NCBI GenBank assembly: GCA_041490825.1
Contig: JBGPTW010000007.1
Coordinates: 561 to 64,560, forward strand
Direction: 5' to 3'
Length of the DNA stretch: 64,000 bases
Source: Candidatus Methylomirabilia bacterium
GTDB lineage: Bacteria > Methylomirabilota > Methylomirabilia > Rokubacteriales > CSP1-6
The notes below the pieces were generated by a model. It searched no databases and was not told where the DNA came from. It was given only the letters and a program-made list of their open reading frames with translations. The translations under genes and the position numbers were made by a program. Position 1 is the stretch's first letter, and each line of letters starts with the position of its first letter. Positions 21,661-26,053 of this stretch are shown one piece after another.

Positions 21661-22551
21661 ATGCTTCCCACGCACGGACGCTACGATTACTCGAACATCA
21701 CCAAGCGGCCGGACTATTCGTGGCCCGGCGGCGGCCGTCTGGCGGTCTACGTCGCGCTCAACATCGAGGCGTTCGGCTTCGGAGTCGGCAAGGGCGCGGC
21801 GATCGCTCCACCGGACCAGGCCCAGAGCCACAGCGTGTTCAGCTGGCGCGACTACGGCAACCGGGTGGGCATCTGGCGCTTGTTCGAACTGCTGGATCAG
21901 CTTCGGATCCCCGCCGAGGCGCAGATGAACACCGAGATTTACGAGATCGCCCCGGACATCCCGGAGCGGCTTCGCGCGCGAGGCGACGAGATCCTCGGCC
22001 ATGGCACGACGAACTCCGACGAACAAGGCCATCTCACCGAGCATCAGGAGCGCGAGCTGATCGAGCGCGTGACCACCACGATCGAGCGGCGTGAAGGCAA
22101 GCGGCCGATCGGCTGGATGAGCCCGTGGCTCTCGAACAGCGCGGTGACGATGGACCTGCTCCAGGAGGCGGGCTACCGCTACGTGATGGACTGGACCATG
22201 GACGATCAGCCGATCTGGATCCGTACGCGCAAGGGCCGCATCCTGTCGATGCCATACCCGATCGAGGTCAACGACACACGTGGGATCGTCTGGTACCGCT
22301 ATACCTCGGAGGCGTTCGCCGACATGATCGTCGATCAGTTCGACGAGATGCTCGAGCAGTCGGCGCGCCAGCCGCTGGTGTGTCCGATCTCGCTCCACCC
22401 GTTCGTCACCGGGCGGCCGTATCGCATCCGCCAGCTCCGCCGCGCGTTCGAGCATATCCTCGAGCATCGCGATCGGATCTGGCTGACGCGCCCGGGCGAG
22501 ATCTGCGCGCACATCGAATCGCTGCCGCCGGGCGTTGTGCCGGGAAGTTGA
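21661..22551 (+). CDS. Polysaccharide deacetylase family protein (second PuuE-like paralog)
   Basis: 296 aa with the same fold signature as the gene at 3964. Confidence 0.65.
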   Translation: MLPTHGRYDYSNITKRPDYSWPGGGRLAVYVALNIEAFGFGVGKGAAIAPPDQAQSHSVFSWRDYGNRVGIWRLFELLDQLRIPAEAQMNTEIYEIAPDIPERLRARGDEILGHGTTNSDEQGHLTEHQERELIERVTTTIERREGKRPIGWMSPWLSNSAVTMDLLQEAGYRYVMDWTMDDQPIWIRTRKGRILSMPYPIEVNDTRGIVWYRYTSEAFADMIVDQFDEMLEQSARQPLVCPISLHPFVTGRPYRIRQLRRAFEHILEHRDRIWLTRPGEICAHIESLPPGVVPGS

Positions 22552-22594
22552 TAATGCTCACCGAGAGGTCGCTCACGCTGACGAGGAGAGCGCA

Positions 22595-23464
22595 ATGAAC
22601 ATCGGTGTCGTCATGCCACAGACCGAGATCGGAAACGATCCGGCCGCGATCAAGGCGTATGCGGAAGCGATCGAGGCGATGGGCTTCACGCACATTCTGG
22701 CCTTCGATCACGTGCTCGGCGCCAACCCCGATCGACCGGGCGGCTGGAAGGGGCCGTACACCTACCGGCACGCCTTCCACGAGCCATTCGTGCTCTTCGG
22801 ATTCCTCGCCGCGGCCACGCGCCGCGTCGAGCTGGTCACCGGCATCATCATCCTGCCGCAGCGCCAGACGGTGCTGGTCGCCAAGCAGGCGGCCGCCGTC
22901 GACGTCCTGTCAGGTGGACGACTCAGGCTCGGCGTCGCGGTCGGATGGAACCCCGTGGAGTTCGAGGCGCTCGGCGAGGACTTCAAGACACGCGGCCGGC
23001 GCATCGAGGAGCAGATCGCCGTGATGCGCACGTTGTGGACGCGTGAGCTCGTCACGGTCTCGGGCCAGGGCCATCGGATCTCCGATGCCGGGATCAACCC
23101 GCTGCCGGTGCAACGACCGATTCCGGTATGGATGGGCGGTGAGAGCGAAATCGTGAAGAAACGCATGGCTCGCATCGCCGACGGCTGGATGCCGCACTTC
23201 CGACCGGGACCGCAAACGCAAGCGGTGGTCGACCGTCTCCACGAGGTGATTCGTGCGGCCGGGCGTGACCCCGCGCACTTCGGCATCGAGGGCCGCATGA
23301 CGCTCTCGCAGATTCCGCCGGGCGACTGGGGCAAGGAGCTCGAAACCTGGCGCGCGATGCGCGGGATCACGCATCTCTGCGTCAACACGATGGGCCTCGG
23401 ATTGAAGACGCCCGATCACGTGGAAGTGCTGCGGCAATTCCGGCAAACAGTCGGGCTGAAGTAG
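22595..23464 (+). CDS. LLM-class (luciferase-like) F420/flavin-dependent oxidoreductase
   Basis: ATG at 22595 after GAGGAG. MNIGVVMPQTEIGNDPAAIKAYAEAIEAMGFTHILAFDHV. Confidence 0.75.
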   Translation: MNIGVVMPQTEIGNDPAAIKAYAEAIEAMGFTHILAFDHVLGANPDRPGGWKGPYTYRHAFHEPFVLFGFLAAATRRVELVTGIIILPQRQTVLVAKQAAAVDVLSGGRLRLGVAVGWNPVEFEALGEDFKTRGRRIEEQIAVMRTLWTRELVTVSGQGHRISDAGINPLPVQRPIPVWMGGESEIVKKRMARIADGWMPHFRPGPQTQAVVDRLHEVIRAAGRDPAHFGIEGRMTLSQIPPGDWGKELETWRAMRGITHLCVNTMGLGLKTPDHVEVLRQFRQTVGLK

Positions 23465-23490
23465 GGCCAGGTTACCGTGCGAGCCGCTCC

Positions 23491-23496
23491 TATAAT
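23491..23496 (+). promoter_or_regulatory. TATAAT -10-like hexamer upstream of the three-gene cassette
   Basis: gctcctataatggcg lies about 45 nt upstream of GTG 23541. Confidence 0.3.
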
Positions 23497-23540
23497 GGCG
23501 ACATGACTCGCCCTACTGTGTGCGCGGCCGAGAAATAAAC

Positions 23541-24008
23541 GTGGTGTTCCGCGTGTATCTCAGTCATAGCGTGTCGCCTCGTGAGCTCGGCGCGATCTAT
23601 GGGATGGCCGAACTGGCAGCGCAGAAGGGGATGCAGCCGATCGTAGCAGACCGGCGGTGGTCTCCTGCGGCGCCCCCCGCGCGAATCGTCCAGCTTCTTC
23701 AGGGCCTCGACGCCTTTGTCGTGATAGCGACGCTGGAAGGAACGCAGGAGTCATGGGTGAATGCCGAGCTGGACACGGCCCTGCACACGGGACTGAGCGC
23801 TCAGGCTGTCGTGTCTGTCGTCGATGCAGGAATCGAGGTTCCGACAACGGATCACGTCGTGACGATTGACCGAAACAACCTGGCCGGAACAATTTCACGA
23901 GCTGTGGAGATTCTCGCGGGACTGAAACTCGGCCAGGATCAACGCAACGTCCTCGCTGGACTTCTCCTTGGAGGACTCGCCGCATTGCTACTCAGTTCGC
24001 GAGACTGA
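23541..24008 (+). CDS. TIR-like (TIR_2/DUF1863-like) domain protein with a C-terminal transmembrane helix
   Basis: VFRVYLSHS...FVVIATLEGTQESWVNAELDTAL follows the TIR-like consensus (YxFISxS...FVVLLS...S.WV..E). C-terminal NVLAGLLLGGLAALLLS. GTG start chosen after GAGAAA. The ORF track starts at 23520. Confidence 0.4.
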   Translation: MVFRVYLSHSVSPRELGAIYGMAELAAQKGMQPIVADRRWSPAAPPARIVQLLQGLDAFVVIATLEGTQESWVNAELDTALHTGLSAQAVVSVVDAGIEVPTTDHVVTIDRNNLAGTISRAVEILAGLKLGQDQRNVLAGLLLGGLAALLLSSRD

Positions 24009-24012
24009 ACTG

Positions 24013-24435
24013 ATGAGCACGCTCCTGGCCTCGGCCGACGCACTCTTCGATTCCGCATCGGAAGCGACAGAGTTCAATGCATCTCGCTGCCCCGCAGCGC
24101 TCGGTGCTCTGTTCGACAAGGTCGAGAACCACTTTCGCTTGCGTGACGCGGACTGGGACACGCTGTTCCGGTACGCGTTACGGCATCCGCAATCCATCCC
24201 TGTTCTCGCCGAAGCTCCCGAGGCAATTCGGCGGGTCTTCGGTCCGGTCCGGCCATTCGTGGACCTCGTCGAGGATCCCGAAGAAGACCGGGAAGAATTG
24301 TTCATTGTCGTACCCACGCGCGAGCCAGCGCGTCAAGCCCTCGACCGGCTGGCGCGGTTGGATGCCGAATGGTTCAACGTGGCGGCTCGCCGAAGCGGCT
24401 TCGCGATCACGGTCACGGTGGAAGCGGATGTTTGA
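24013..24435 (+). CDS. Hypothetical protein, middle gene of the cassette
   Basis: ATG 5 nt after the upstream stop. Its own stop overlaps the downstream ATG (ATGTTTGA). No recognisable domain. Confidence 0.5.
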   Translation: MSTLLASADALFDSASEATEFNASRCPAALGALFDKVENHFRLRDADWDTLFRYALRHPQSIPVLAEAPEAIRRVFGPVRPFVDLVEDPEEDREELFIVVPTREPARQALDRLARLDAEWFNVAARRSGFAITVTVEADV

Positions 24436-24802
24436 CTGGGCGCAGTACCTCGAACTGGCACGGACGATCCTGGCCCGACCCATTCCTCCGTGGGAGGCGT
24501 GGCCGGAGGAAGCGTGCTTTCGCGCTGCCGCGAGCCGCGCATACTATGCAGCATTCCATGCGGCGCGAACGACGATCGAGCGCGAAATCGGCATGACGTT
24601 CGGACGCGACCGAATCCATCGCGAGGTGCTTCAGCGTCTGCAAGAGCGGGCTGATCGTGATTCAGCCGCTCGTGCACTGAAACGCCTTTATGGGAAACGG
24701 CTGCATGCCGACTACAATGCCGAGCGCGGGTTTGCTTCGCGCGATGCCGACCTCGCGATCGAATTTGCCTCGGACGTTCTGCGCGGCTTGGCCGCGGAAT
24801 AA
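24428..24802 (+). CDS. HEPN-domain protein (COG2250-like)
   Basis: RAYYAAFHAARTTIER ... LYGKRLHADYNAE matches the HEPN helices and the R-x4-6-H-type motif. Confidence 0.55.
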   Translation: MFDWAQYLELARTILARPIPPWEAWPEEACFRAAASRAYYAAFHAARTTIEREIGMTFGRDRIHREVLQRLQERADRDSAARALKRLYGKRLHADYNAERGFASRDADLAIEFASDVLRGLAAE

Positions 24803-24892
24803 CGATCCCACCTTCGCTGCCGATCTCGATTCCTTTCCTGTCCCATCTCGGCTAGCCTAACGGCGCGGCTCGATCCGAACGAGGAGGCCAGC

Positions 24893-26053
24893 ATGCCGAT
24901 CAAGCGTTTCGTCGTCCTCGCCAGCGTTGTCGCCGTCATCACTTCGGCCGCGGGCGCCCACGCGCAGATTGCCGTCAGCGCCAACGACAACAAGGTCATC
25001 CTCGTGAACGGCGTGGTGAAGCCGGTGCCGAATGCGCCGCCGGACACCGTGACCGTCATCGATCTCAAAGCGTCACCGCCGAAGACGATCGCCGAAGTGT
25101 CCGGCGTACCGGTGAGCGTCGTCGGCCCGCCGCTCAGCGTGGCGATCACGCCGGACGAGAGTCTCGCGCTGGTGACCGCGTCGACGAAGATCGATCCGAG
25201 CGATCCGGCCAAGACCGTGCCGGACAATCGGATGTCCGTGATCGATCTCAAGGCGACTCCGCCGACAGTGATCGCTACCCTCGAGACGGGCCGAGGACCG
25301 TCGGGACTGTCGATCAACCGACAGGGCACGCTGGCGCTCGTCGGTAATCGTGAAGACGGCACGGTGTCGATCTTCACGATTCAGGGCAAGACGGTGACTC
25401 CGGCCGGCAATCTCGCGCTCGATGCGAAGTCCGGCACGACTCACGTCGCGATCACGCCCGACGGCAAGACGGCGCTGGTCTCGCGGTACCTCGACAACAA
25501 GATCTCGATCCTCTCGATCGACGGGAGCAAGGTCGAATACACCAAGCGCGACCTGTCCGCCGGCGTCCGACCCGGCGCGCTCGAGATTTCACCGAGCGGG
25601 GCGTGGGCCGTCGTCGGCAACCTCGGTGGTGGTCAGGGCGACGAAGAGACGGTCAGCCTCATCGATCTCAAGGCGAAGCCGCCGCGCGTGGTCGACACGA
25701 TCACGGTCGGGCAGACGCCCGAGGGCGTGAAGGTCTCGCCGGACGGGATGCACGTCGCGGTCGTGGTGCACAACGGCAGCAACAAGCCGAAGGAGTCGCC
25801 GTTCTTCAACGATCACGGCAAGCTCGTGTTCCTGCGCGTCGACGGCGGCAAGCTGGCGCGGGTCGCGGAGCTGCCGATCGGCCACTGGGCGCAAGGCGCG
25901 GCGTTCTCGTCCGACGGCAAGAAGATTCTCGTCGGCAACATGGTGGAGAAGGACTACCAGGTGTTCGAGTGGAACGGCAGCACGCTCCGCGACACGGGGG
26001 TTCGTCTCGCGGTGAAGGGCGGCGCGGCCGCGATCCGGACCGCGGAGAAATAG
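24893..26053 (+). CDS. Secreted YVTN-family beta-propeller repeat protein (lactonase-like)
   Basis: Signal peptide, then repeated V..IDLKA..P modules. Confidence 0.7.
   Translation: MPIKRFVVLASVVAVITSAAGAHAQIAVSANDNKVILVNGVVKPVPNAPPDTVTVIDLKASPPKTIAEVSGVPVSVVGPPLSVAITPDESLALVTASTKIDPSDPAKTVPDNRMSVIDLKATPPTVIATLETGRGPSGLSINRQGTLALVGNREDGTVSIFTIQGKTVTPAGNLALDAKSGTTHVAITPDGKTALVSRYLDNKISILSIDGSKVEYTKRDLSAGVRPGALEISPSGAWAVVGNLGGGQGDEETVSLIDLKAKPPRVVDTITVGQTPEGVKVSPDGMHVAVVVHNGSNKPKESPFFNDHGKLVFLRVDGGKLARVAELPIGHWAQGAAFSSDGKKILVGNMVEKDYQVFEWNGSTLRDTGVRLAVKGGAAAIRTAEK

Follow-up and report, generated by a model that had tools for sequence, protein, structure and literature searches.

The three genes examined here, designated A, B and C, lie within a 64-kb window, the whole stretch of DNA that was analyzed, and appear, on the evidence of sequence and gene order, to represent one sub-variant of a much larger family of operons in which an acidic protein without a recognizable domain (B) is followed by an AF0298-type HEPN protein (C). 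Comparison of these operons shows a constant B-C core and an exchangeable first gene, which encodes either a TIR-membrane protein, as in the window, or a protein of the TIGR04255 family. The broadest interpretation, under which B and AF0298-type HEPN would form the core of widespread, unnamed three-component conflict systems encompassing more than 1,000 B clusters, with B replacing the MNT antitoxin, a swappable first gene, and a TIR version in the window linking membrane-anchored NAD+ depletion to RNA cleavage, is put forward tentatively, at somewhat less than an even chance.

In the window, A, B and C are read as three co-directional, tightly packed ORFs (Table 1). The ORF of gene A first opens at GTG 23520; because 13 homologs begin with MAFRVYLSHS and GTG 23541 gives MVFRVYLSHS, the latter, already favored in the preliminary description of this locus, is the likely start. 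Gene A ends with the stop codon at 24006-24008, gene B extends from ATG 24013 to the stop codon at 24433-24435, and gene C from ATG 24428 to the stop codon at 24800-24802. The distance between A and B is accordingly 4 nt (24009-24012), rather than 5 nt as first reported, and the overlap between B and C, originally given as four codons, is the 8-nt string ATGTTTGA (24428-24435). The protein motifs quoted in that description were all found in the translations, and the TATAAT sequence is present where it had been placed. However, a consensus promoter scan detected no suitable -35 element to go with it, which leaves it as only a lone hexamer within the 76-nt gap preceding gene A. The promoter/terminator scan detected no terminator after gene C, and the sole match in an Rfam scan of positions 22500-25500 was sub-threshold (narK). 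Within the 64-kb window, there is no second copy of A, B or C and no MNT or TIGR04255 gene.

Table 1. Features of the cassette, with positions given in the window
Feature	Position	Strand	Description
TATAAT hexamer	23491..23496	+	Candidate -10 element, 44 nt upstream of gene A start
Gene A	23541..24008	+	155 aa, TIR-domain protein with C-terminal hydrophobic tail helix
W-x3-E motif of A, codons W72-V-N-A-E76	23754..23768	+	Position of TIR catalytic glutamate
C-terminal helix of A, V137-S153 (VLAGLLLGGLAALLLSS)	23949..23999	+	Predicted tail-anchor/transmembrane, G-x3-G-G pattern
Gene B	24013..24435	+	140 aa, pI 4.7, large unnamed acidic family
Gene C	24428..24802	+	124 aa, AF0298-type HEPN (HEPN-T, PF05168, 'UPF0332'), predicted RNase
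Codon H64 of C	24617..24619	+	'Alternative' conserved His of AF0298-type HEPN; H in 56/56 sequences
Codons R91-L-H-A-D95-Y96 of C	24698..24715	+	R of Rx4-6H, D replacing H, then conserved Tyr

The initial recognition of C as a HEPN protein is borne out by its score on PF05168 (27.4 bits, with a cut-off of 22; E = 4e-6). In searches against the PDB, the profile of the C family matched the HEPN chains 9xbd (E = 2.8e-7) and 9xbc, and it also matched the Retron-Kva2 HEPN chain (E = 5.8e-4) and AF0298 (2hsb; E = 1.4e-3). Across 56 sequences of the family, E28, R32, S36, R37, Y39, H64, R91, D95 and Y96 are nearly invariant, with R91 conserved in 54, and D95 and Y96 in 52 each. The canonical Rx4-6H motif is absent from this alignment, H93 being variable and no conserved His following R91. 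An alternative conserved His located N-terminal to the R motif has been described for AF0298-type HEPN, replacement of the conserved H by D is listed for HEPN-T (Table 1 of PMC3710099), and loss of the canonical His is a known deviation of the AF0298/AbiV sub-type, which is still within the HEPN superfamily (PMC3710099). By this pattern of conservation, C is an HEPN protein of the AF0298 type in which the predicted RNase residues are intact.

Protein B, in which no domain had been recognized at the outset, indeed has zero matches in Pfam, NCBIfam, PADLOC and the PDB sequences. It belongs, nevertheless, to a large family: a profile search retrieved 1,112 cluster representatives at E<=1e-3, with clusters defined at 50% identity. 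Conserved positions of the family include E/D84, D88-P-E-E91, W120-F121 and E137. The structure model of B, built from 4 sequences, is mediocre (pLDDT 69), and a Foldseek search with this model returned nothing below E 0.1, the matches being to generic alpha+beta folds. A DNA-binding domain, a common feature of type II antitoxins, is not recognizable in B. In searches of plasmid and viral collections, the family was almost entirely missing; two B proteins had no tblastn matches in plasmids, and, of the viral contig searches, one gave a single match and the other none.

B could be imagined to be a cryptic, highly degenerate nucleotidyltransferase of the MNT fold that AMPylates the conserved Tyr96 of C in the manner of the type VII HepT/MntA, with the TIR gene being an add-on. 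This is quite unlikely: none of 70 B family members matches Pfam NTP_transf_2 or Polbeta, an hhalign comparison of this family with 10 MNTs yields a probability of 0.4%, the same as for unrelated controls, the G[GS] and [DE]x[DE] motifs are missing from the B family alignment, and the generic folds retrieved by Foldseek likewise speak against it. Together with the lack of an MNT gene in the window, these results uphold the preliminary statement that no MNT partner is present.

A metagenome scan run with a 17-member subset of the B alignment yielded 80 loci of a distant B clade. A C-type HEPN is encoded directly downstream of B in 56 of the 68 evaluable loci. On the upstream side, 49 loci could be evaluated, and in 29 of them the gene next to B encodes a TIGR04255 protein (110-150 bits). 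Where a TIGR04255 gene precedes B in other clades, its stop codon overlaps the start of B by 4 nt; some contigs carry B-C without an obvious upstream partner. A TIR-membrane protein is encoded by the first gene in the clade of the window, whereas elsewhere this is usually a TIGR04255-family protein. The TIGR04255 protein has zero matches among PDB sequences, and our searches found no literature on TIGR04255 or on UPF0332.

The preliminary description had made the status of the cassette as a module depend on the joint occurrence of A, B and C in other genomes, and the triplet is indeed present elsewhere. In at least five other lineages (L001, L005, L013, L014 and L015), it retains both order and spacing, with -4 to +4 nt between A and B and -11 to +1 nt between B and C, at a cassette GC of 0.48 to 0.64. 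Sequence identity to the window proteins falls in parallel, from 63 to 30% for A, from 56 to 37% for B and from 51 to 39% for C, and by this measure the three genes co-diverge as one unit. An additional, partial triplet was found at L099, and L004 has kept A and B but lost C, so that A and B may also function as a unit by themselves. Little extra information came from two short contigs, L100 and L101. Species-level genome scans produced a single locus, L013, in 185,579 species; this locus was found with the B query, and the scan with the A alignment, in which the hydrophobic helix served as search pattern, confirmed no locus.

These observations bear on the possibility that B-C is a self-sufficient two-gene toxin-antitoxin and A a separate, travelling TIR-membrane gene, for example, an independent single-gene defense effector. 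Most B-C loci do lack a TIR, and those without an obvious upstream partner fit the same picture. Yet the A-B spacing remains between -4 and +4 nt in all lineages, even at 30% identity, and A changes in step with B and C; the locus that lost C retained A-B; and the first position in other clades is also occupied by a tightly coupled gene, the one for TIGR04255. We therefore regard independent travel of A as distinctly unlikely.

The identification of A as TIR-like, made originally from a consensus, is supported by its predicted structure and by its homologs. The AF2 model (pLDDT 86) has the alternating strand/helix (alpha/beta) pattern of a flavodoxin-like fold, and its top Foldseek matches are TIR domains, namely those of TIR-STING (9lmq; E = 8e-4), SARM1, RPPT-TIR, SPARTA, RPP1, L6 and PdTIR, with probabilities of 0.96-1.0 and TM scores of 0.4-0.55, the latter being reduced by the additional helix at the tail. 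Further down, the ranking also contains non-TIR proteins with a flavodoxin-like fold. Protein A of the window itself scores only 12.8 bits on Pfam TIR_2 (PF13676; E = 0.17), compared with the cut-off of 28. Its L014 homolog (38% identity, E = 1e-34) reaches 40.2 bits and the L015 homolog 28.6 bits, and membership of the window protein in the TIR family follows by transitivity. In the W-x3-E motif, E76 is invariant and W72 at least 90% conserved among 13-14 homologs, in keeping with the TIR arrangement in which the catalytic glutamate opens the helix that follows the third strand and an aromatic residue precedes it by four positions. HMM alignments place the W and E of the TIR chains 8wcf and 7xoz on these two residues, with E values (~1) that are not significant alone, and we take W72 and E76 to correspond to W638 and E642 of SARM1.

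The hydrophobic helix at the C terminus of A, also pointed out initially, is conserved in the homologs, and nowhere in the family is conservation higher than in this segment (NLLAGLLLGG). Residues V137-S153 are helical in the AF2 model; the Kyte-Doolittle 19-residue mean of 1.54 is borderline, just below the usual cut-off. Taken together, the alignments and the model identify A as a TIR domain that carries the W-x3-E motif of NADases and ends in a conserved hydrophobic helix.

A TIR domain of this kind could also act upstream of the other two proteins, in a Thoeris-like manner: on infection, A would make an NAD+-derived nucleotide signal, and B would bind this signal and release or activate the C RNase. 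The catalytic W-x3-E motif of A is compatible with such signaling, as are the match of the L014 homolog to Pfam ThsB_TIR (26.7 bits) and the conservation of B, to which no function is assigned. The PADLOC-DB v2.0.0 matches of A, to SAVED-TIR (E = 0.014) and ThsB (E = 0.06), point the same way but are weak, the cassette having no significant match in this database (none at all for B; E = 0.081 for C). In most B-HEPN operons, however, TIGR04255 or another gene replaces the TIR, and therefore B-C cannot generally depend on a TIR product. Furthermore, B matches none of the known signal-binding domains SLOG, Macro, CARF, SAVED and STING, and A bears a membrane tail, which is seen more typically in effectors than in sensors of the ThsB type. 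Overall, signaling from A through B to C seems unlikely.

The proposal that the cassette is an inserted module is backed both by its codon composition and by its surroundings in different genomes. The A/T enrichment noted earlier is real but modest: the cassette has a GC of 0.621, the mean for the window is 0.672 (sd 0.026), and a value this low is reached by 6% of segments of the same size. The contrast in GC3, 0.65-0.70 in A, B and C versus 0.84 and 0.88 in the genes on either side, is much stronger than that in overall GC, and on this basis the cassette was probably acquired; no insertion-marking repeats were found flanking it. Triplet neighbors differ in every genome and include a defense island and a toxin-antitoxin cluster: the trio in L001 is bordered by SAVED, PLD and HTH-peptidase genes at one end and by an integrase at the other, that in L005 is set among PhdYeFM and DUF433/DUF5615 pairs, and the module adjoins MNT-HepT pairs in L014 and L016.

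The neighbors in the window are, however, ordinary metabolic genes, which counts against a conflict system, and those in L004 and L013 are housekeeping genes as well. Considering also that some HEPN domains are non-catalytic (PMC3710099), C might be a housekeeping RNA-processing or RNA-binding factor regulated by B. The sporadic distribution, with one locus among 185,579 species in two species-level scans, the atypical GC3 and the different genomic position in each genome, the co-location with toxin-antitoxin and defense genes elsewhere, and the conservation of predicted catalytic residues all run counter to this explanation, which we consider very improbable.

A role of the cassette in defense or as a toxin module is what these contexts and domains suggest. 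We infer, with confidence just short of an even chance, that it is a horizontally acquired three-component operon of the toxin-antitoxin or abortive-infection type, with C as RNase toxin, B as antitoxin and A as membrane NAD+ hydrolase. B-C fits a generic type II-like pair, with coupled small genes, an acidic upstream partner, a basic putative toxin and a mobile, sporadic occurrence, and the best reading of B is that of a protein antitoxin or adaptor of C. Specifically, C would be the RNase toxin and B would neutralize it by direct binding rather than by AMPylation; the charge complementarity between the families (median pI of 4.7 for B versus 9.2 for C) counts in favor of this overall reading, and the invariant acidic D-P-E-E hairpin loop of B may plug the basic R/H cleft of C. 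A would be a membrane-tethered NAD+ hydrolase restrained within the same complex, acting as a second effector and/or coupling a membrane-proximal trigger to release. Upon phage infection or stress, B would be lost or displaced, and RNA cleavage together with NAD+ depletion would lead to cell arrest. The swappable gene of defense systems is usually the effector, so that the constant B-HEPN pair could instead be a sensor or regulator, not a toxin-antitoxin.

HEPN RNases and TIR NADases rank among the killing domains most often encountered in prokaryotic immune and toxin-antitoxin systems. No described system was found that encodes HEPN and TIR as individual proteins together with a third protein dedicated to linking them, and a search of the literature on HEPN with TIR and on three-gene or tripartite systems found no description of an A-B-C operon. 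PADLOC likewise gives no matching system, in line with the initial impression that the cassette is not a recognized named system, and the distant relatives have at best weak matches there, to PDC-M05B and HEPN_IX (E ~6e-5). The new elements are a large B protein family without a model in Pfam, NCBIfam or PADLOC, evidence for B as the regular partner of one HEPN sub-type, and an initial genomic setting for TIGR04255, until now an orphan family.

Among known systems, HEPN-MNT (HepT/MntA, type VII) resembles the cassette in that a small gene of the HEPN-T class (PF05168) is the toxin, that a partner gene of 100-170 aa precedes and overlaps the HEPN gene, as B does C, and that the conserved Tyr beside the R motif (Y96 of C, 52/56 sequences) and occurrence in toxin-antitoxin-rich regions are shared. 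It differs in that partner B is not an MNT, lacking G[GS] or DxD motifs, and that the operon includes one more closely coupled gene, located upstream and encoding a TIR-membrane or TIGR04255 protein. The HEPN proteins of AbiV and of the type IX retron (Retron-Kva2) share the sub-type of C, in which the canonical H is missing from the R motif and an alternative His lies upstream (PMC3710099), but the partners in the cassette are B and TIR rather than a reverse transcriptase, an ncRNA or a winged-helix protein.

Like the cassette, Thoeris combines in one operon a small stand-alone TIR with a catalytic Glu and a separate putative effector; however, ThsA (SIR2-SLOG or Macro-TM) is not found in B, C or the neighbors, the cassette TIR itself bears a membrane helix, and its B-HEPN part is widespread without any TIR. 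CBASS and Pycsar employ TIR domains of the NADase type (the CAP12/Pycsar TIR family) and membrane-associated killing modules as abortive-infection effectors, and the L088 and L014 homologs of A match CAP12-PCTIR_TIR at E = 0.006 and 0.02, below the Pfam threshold. In contrast to those systems, the locus has no cyclase or cyclic-nucleotide sensor domain, and TIR and hydrophobic helix are joined in one 155-aa protein.

In tripartite toxin-antitoxin systems (TAC/CmdTAC, HipBST), three small, co-directional, coupled genes occur and a third protein modulates the pair. The translationally coupled layout of the cassette is similar by analogy, although no component is homologous and the third protein is a TIR with a membrane helix, rather than a SecB-like chaperone or HTH regulator. 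If B is a non-enzymatic antitoxin of HEPN-T, control of this class of HEPN proteins could no longer be ascribed to nucleotidylation by MNTs alone, and if an effector or sensor is what is exchanged at the first position, these operons would offer a compact model for module swapping.

The cassette comprises three co-directional ORFs, here called genes A, B and C. The longest gene A ORF opens upstream at GTG 23520, and GTG 23541 is the likely start because every full-length homologue begins MAFRVYLSHS. The genes are translationally coupled and as tightly packed as the preliminary description held, with the distances corrected: the A-B spacer is 4 nt rather than 5, and B and C overlap by 8 nt (ATGTTTGA) rather than by 4 codons. 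The TATAAT hexamer reported ahead of the cassette is present; a consensus scan gave it no -35 partner and gave no terminator downstream of gene C. The A/T-richer patch is real but modest: GC is 0.621 in the cassette versus 0.672 in the window (6th percentile among equal-sized windows). Codon composition is atypical as well, and GC3 separates the cassette from its flanks more clearly than overall GC, with 0.65, 0.70 and 0.65 in A, B and C versus 0.84 and 0.88 in the flanking luciferase-like and beta-propeller genes. This low GC3 points to a foreign origin of the cassette. No insertion-marking repeats were found flanking it, and no second copy of A, B or C lies within the 64-kb window. Rfam gave no match above threshold at the cassette region; a narK RNA match inside gene A (21 bits, where the gathering score is 43; E 0.5) almost certainly arose by chance.

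Coordinates of the cassette, its homologous loci and associated features (window positions unless a locus, L, is named)
Feature	Location	Strand	Remarks
TATAAT hexamer	23491-23496	+	sequence present
Gene A	23541 to stop 24006-24008	+	155 aa, start GTG 23541 (MVFRVYLSHS)
narK RNA match	23707-23781	-	
Gene B	ATG 24013 to 24435	+	140 aa
Gene C	ATG 24428 to 24802	+	124 aa
A-B-C, GCA_030157125/145	L001/L002		flanked on one side by SAVED, PLD and HTH-peptidase_M78, on the other by an integrase and HTH genes
A-B-C, Rokubacteria MAG	L005-L008		surrounded by PhdYeFM and DUF433/DUF5615 pairs
A-B-C, uncultured-bacterium MAG	L013		flanked by SpoIID and tRNA-binding gene; type I restriction R subunit upstream, past ruvB
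A-B-C, metagenome	L014		HEPN gene at 994-1365, missed in source annotation
A-B-C, metagenome	L015		short 1.4-kb contig
A-B-C, partial	L099		short contig
A and B only	L004:5001-5936		
MNT-HepT pairs	L014:2491-3343; L016:1121-1758		NTP_transf_2/Polbeta plus HepT-like DUF86
Tandem B	L017:49-840; L038:1361-2032		first: P0035, 263 aa
TIGR04255-B-HEPN	L016:1755-3375; L048:2021-3710		second: example operon
Double B module	L065:51-1934		TIGR04255 51-794, B 794-1270, HEPN 1267-1653, second B from 1650
Upstream protein, L088	L088:2063-2974		303 aa

Gene C encodes a HEPN protein, as had been proposed: it scores 27.4 bits against Pfam HEPN PF05168 (cut-off 22), and its family profile matches in the PDB the HEPN chains 9xbd/9xbc (E 3e-7), the Retron-Kva2 HEPN (E 6e-4) and AF0298 (2hsb, E 1e-3). 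Among 56 distinct relatives, E28, R32, S36, R37, Y39, H64, R91, D95 and Y96 are nearly invariant, and H93 is not conserved. HEPN proteins of the AbiV and HEPN-T/AF0298 types keep the R of Rx4-6H and have D where the H would be, a second conserved His further upstream being the likely alternative active site; the conserved Tyr has been proposed as a target of nucleotidylation by the minimal nucleotidyltransferase (MNT) (Anantharaman et al. 2013, PMC3710099). The residue pattern of C matches this description and, judged from its sequence, C is an AF0298-type HEPN. The nearest solved relatives are 9xbd_A/9xbc_A, an unnamed 'HEPN domain-containing protein', and 36ht_I, the HEPN effector of a type IX retron, Kva2; the former was deposited as wild type and as a Y-to-F variant at the position equivalent to Y96, a Tyr that its depositors evidently regard as functionally important.

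Gene B had been described as lacking a recognisable domain, and none of Pfam, NCBIfam and PADLOC gave it a match. Run against 1.84 billion proteins, a profile built from four close homologues retrieved 1,112 cluster representatives (E<=1e-3), 70 members scanned one by one gave no meaningful Pfam and no NCBIfam match, and the family profile has no match among PDB sequences; B is thus a member of a large family without a name in the databases searched. Its conserved core, EA..I...FG......L[ED]L..DPEE....LF.....[ST], is followed by W-F and a final strand ending in E, and a structure model of moderate quality (pLDDT 69, 4 sequences) has N-terminal helices followed by strand-strand-helix-helix-strand. 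The B and C families are complementary in charge, the former uniformly acidic (median pI 4.7) and the latter basic (9.2). Alignment by hhalign of 144 B sequences with 10 MNTs from the fetched loci gave a probability of 0.4%, equal to unrelated controls, Foldseek of the B model returned nothing below E 0.1, and neither the G[GS] nor the [DE]x[DE] motif is present. These results place B outside the MNT family, and membership was rejected; a distant structural kinship is possible but unsupported. With the homology tests against MNT having failed, it is quite unlikely that B is a cryptic AMPylating enzyme. In two loci the B domain occurs twice in tandem within one polypeptide, a hint that B may work in dimeric form; a C-type HEPN follows the tandem in L017, and none was detected after that in L038.

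Gene A itself matches Pfam TIR_2 weakly (E 0.17). Its AlphaFold model (pLDDT 86, pTM 0.83, 13 sequences), in which strands alternate with helices before a long terminal helix, has as best Foldseek matches in the PDB the TIR proteins TIR-STING, SARM1, RPPT-TIR, SPARTA, RPP1, L6 and PdTIR (probability 0.96-1.0, best E-value 8e-4), with some flavodoxin-like proteins lower down. The homologue in L014, reached via its neighbouring B (38% identity, E 1e-34), scores 40.2 bits on TIR_2 (cut-off 28) and 26.7 bits on ThsB_TIR, and that in L015 scores 28.6 bits on TIR_2. W72-x3-E76 is kept in the family (E76 invariant, W72 in at least 90%) and falls on the Trp and Glu of TIR chains 8wcf and 7xoz, in alignments that are not significant alone; we take the pair to be the counterpart of the SARM1 catalytic pair W638/E642. 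Modelled fold, homologue Pfam scores and W-x3-E are three independent lines that agree that A is a TIR domain, as its TIR-like consensus had suggested. The hydrophobic C-terminal helix ascribed to A, NLLAGLLLGGLAALLLASRD, is the best-conserved part of the family and helical in the model, and is of borderline hydropathy for spanning a membrane (Kyte-Doolittle mean 1.54); we read it as a putative tail anchor, its packing motif being G-x3-G-G.

Homologues were rare in a word-indexed search (13 for A, 4 for B), and the A-B-C order recurs at homologous loci wherever the contig is long enough (see the table). The anticipated co-occurrence was thus observed, and none of the findings that would count against the proposed module (A not TIR-like, C not HEPN, no co-occurrence) was made. 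The three proteins diverge together, identity to the window proteins dropping in parallel from 63 to 30% for A, 56 to 37% for B and 51 to 39% for C; spacing ranges from -4 to +4 nt between A and B and from -11 to +1 nt between B and C, and cassette GC from 0.48 to 0.64. At four further loci (L009-L012) the window locus recurs almost unchanged and with the same neighbours. At L014, the HEPN protein is encoded by an intact ORF of 123 aa that shares 11 nt with B, so automated gene calls may under-report C-type HEPN genes beside B. L004 has A and B without C, which either was lost there or is dispensable to an A-B pair able to stand alone; its B carries a 14-residue C-terminal extension, with a peptidyl-prolyl isomerase gene directly downstream. 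That A is an independent passenger is improbable, given the fixed A-B spacing and the retention of A with B at L004. Classical MNT-HepT pairs lie within 1-1.5 kb of B-HEPN operons in two loci, indicating that both kinds of HEPN module coexist in the same toxin-antitoxin clusters. The distribution is sporadic and mobile; two scans of species-representative genomes found one locus, and in the plasmid and viral collections searched the B family is all but missing. A housekeeping role of the cassette is highly improbable.

Scanning metagenomes with a distant subgroup of B yielded 80 loci, whose ORFs were searched with profiles from A, B, C and a recurrent upstream protein. Of the 68 loci whose downstream sequence sufficed, 56 have a C-type HEPN that begins at the end of B, the two typically overlapping by 4 nt. 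Directly upstream of B, 29 of the 49 loci with enough sequence encode a ~250-aa protein that is a clear TIGR04255 member (110-150 bits versus a cut-off of 30), its stop overlapping the B start; the A-type TIR profile matched in none of the 80. The TIGR04255-B-HEPN operon, with 4-nt overlaps at each junction, is present in L016 and ~29 loci among L018-L097, and seems to give this orphan family its first genomic context; no mention of the family was found in the literature searched. HEPN recurring after B while the first gene varies marks B-HEPN as the constant core, with an exchangeable first gene, the window cassette belonging to the TIR-membrane sub-variant. A Thoeris-like signal relay is unlikely, since TIR is missing from most B-HEPN operons. 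In L088, of a B clade otherwise using TIGR04255, the upstream protein has a weak CAP12/Pycsar-TIR match (E 0.006), an N-terminal domain of ~125 aa without assignment and a C-terminal hydrophobic helix resembling that of A. In L065, two B modules lie back to back within a single short contig.

We propose, tentatively and at somewhat less than an even chance for the scheme as a whole, that C would be an RNase toxin and B its cognate protein antitoxin or adaptor, working by binding, with the invariant acidic D-P-E-E loop of B as the part that may plug the basic R/H cleft of C. A would be a membrane-tethered NAD+ hydrolase, serving in the same complex as a second effector or trigger-coupling part. 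Within this scheme, B-C as a toxin-antitoxin stands on firmer ground than does the role proposed for A.

The cassette had not been recognised as a named system, and PADLOC v2 matched none. No description of the operon was found in the full-text literature searched, and none of the 18 HEPN-containing defence systems listed in a 2024 survey has this composition; absence from these libraries, which reach neither newer DefenseFinder models nor subscription journals, does not prove novelty. Among named systems the cassette comes nearest to the HEPN-MNT (HepT/MntA) type VII toxin-antitoxin, with which it shares HEPN class, gene order and the conserved Tyr. Unlike that system, it lacks the defining MNT partner: as noted earlier from sequence, no MNT is present; the whole 64-kb window has neither an MNT nor a TIGR04255 gene, and B is not an MNT. 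Membership in HepT/MntA was therefore rejected, and the cassette is not Thoeris, because ThsA is absent. Set against these systems, the cassette would be a HEPN-toxin conflict module in which a new family, B, is the partner and a TIR-membrane protein the third component.
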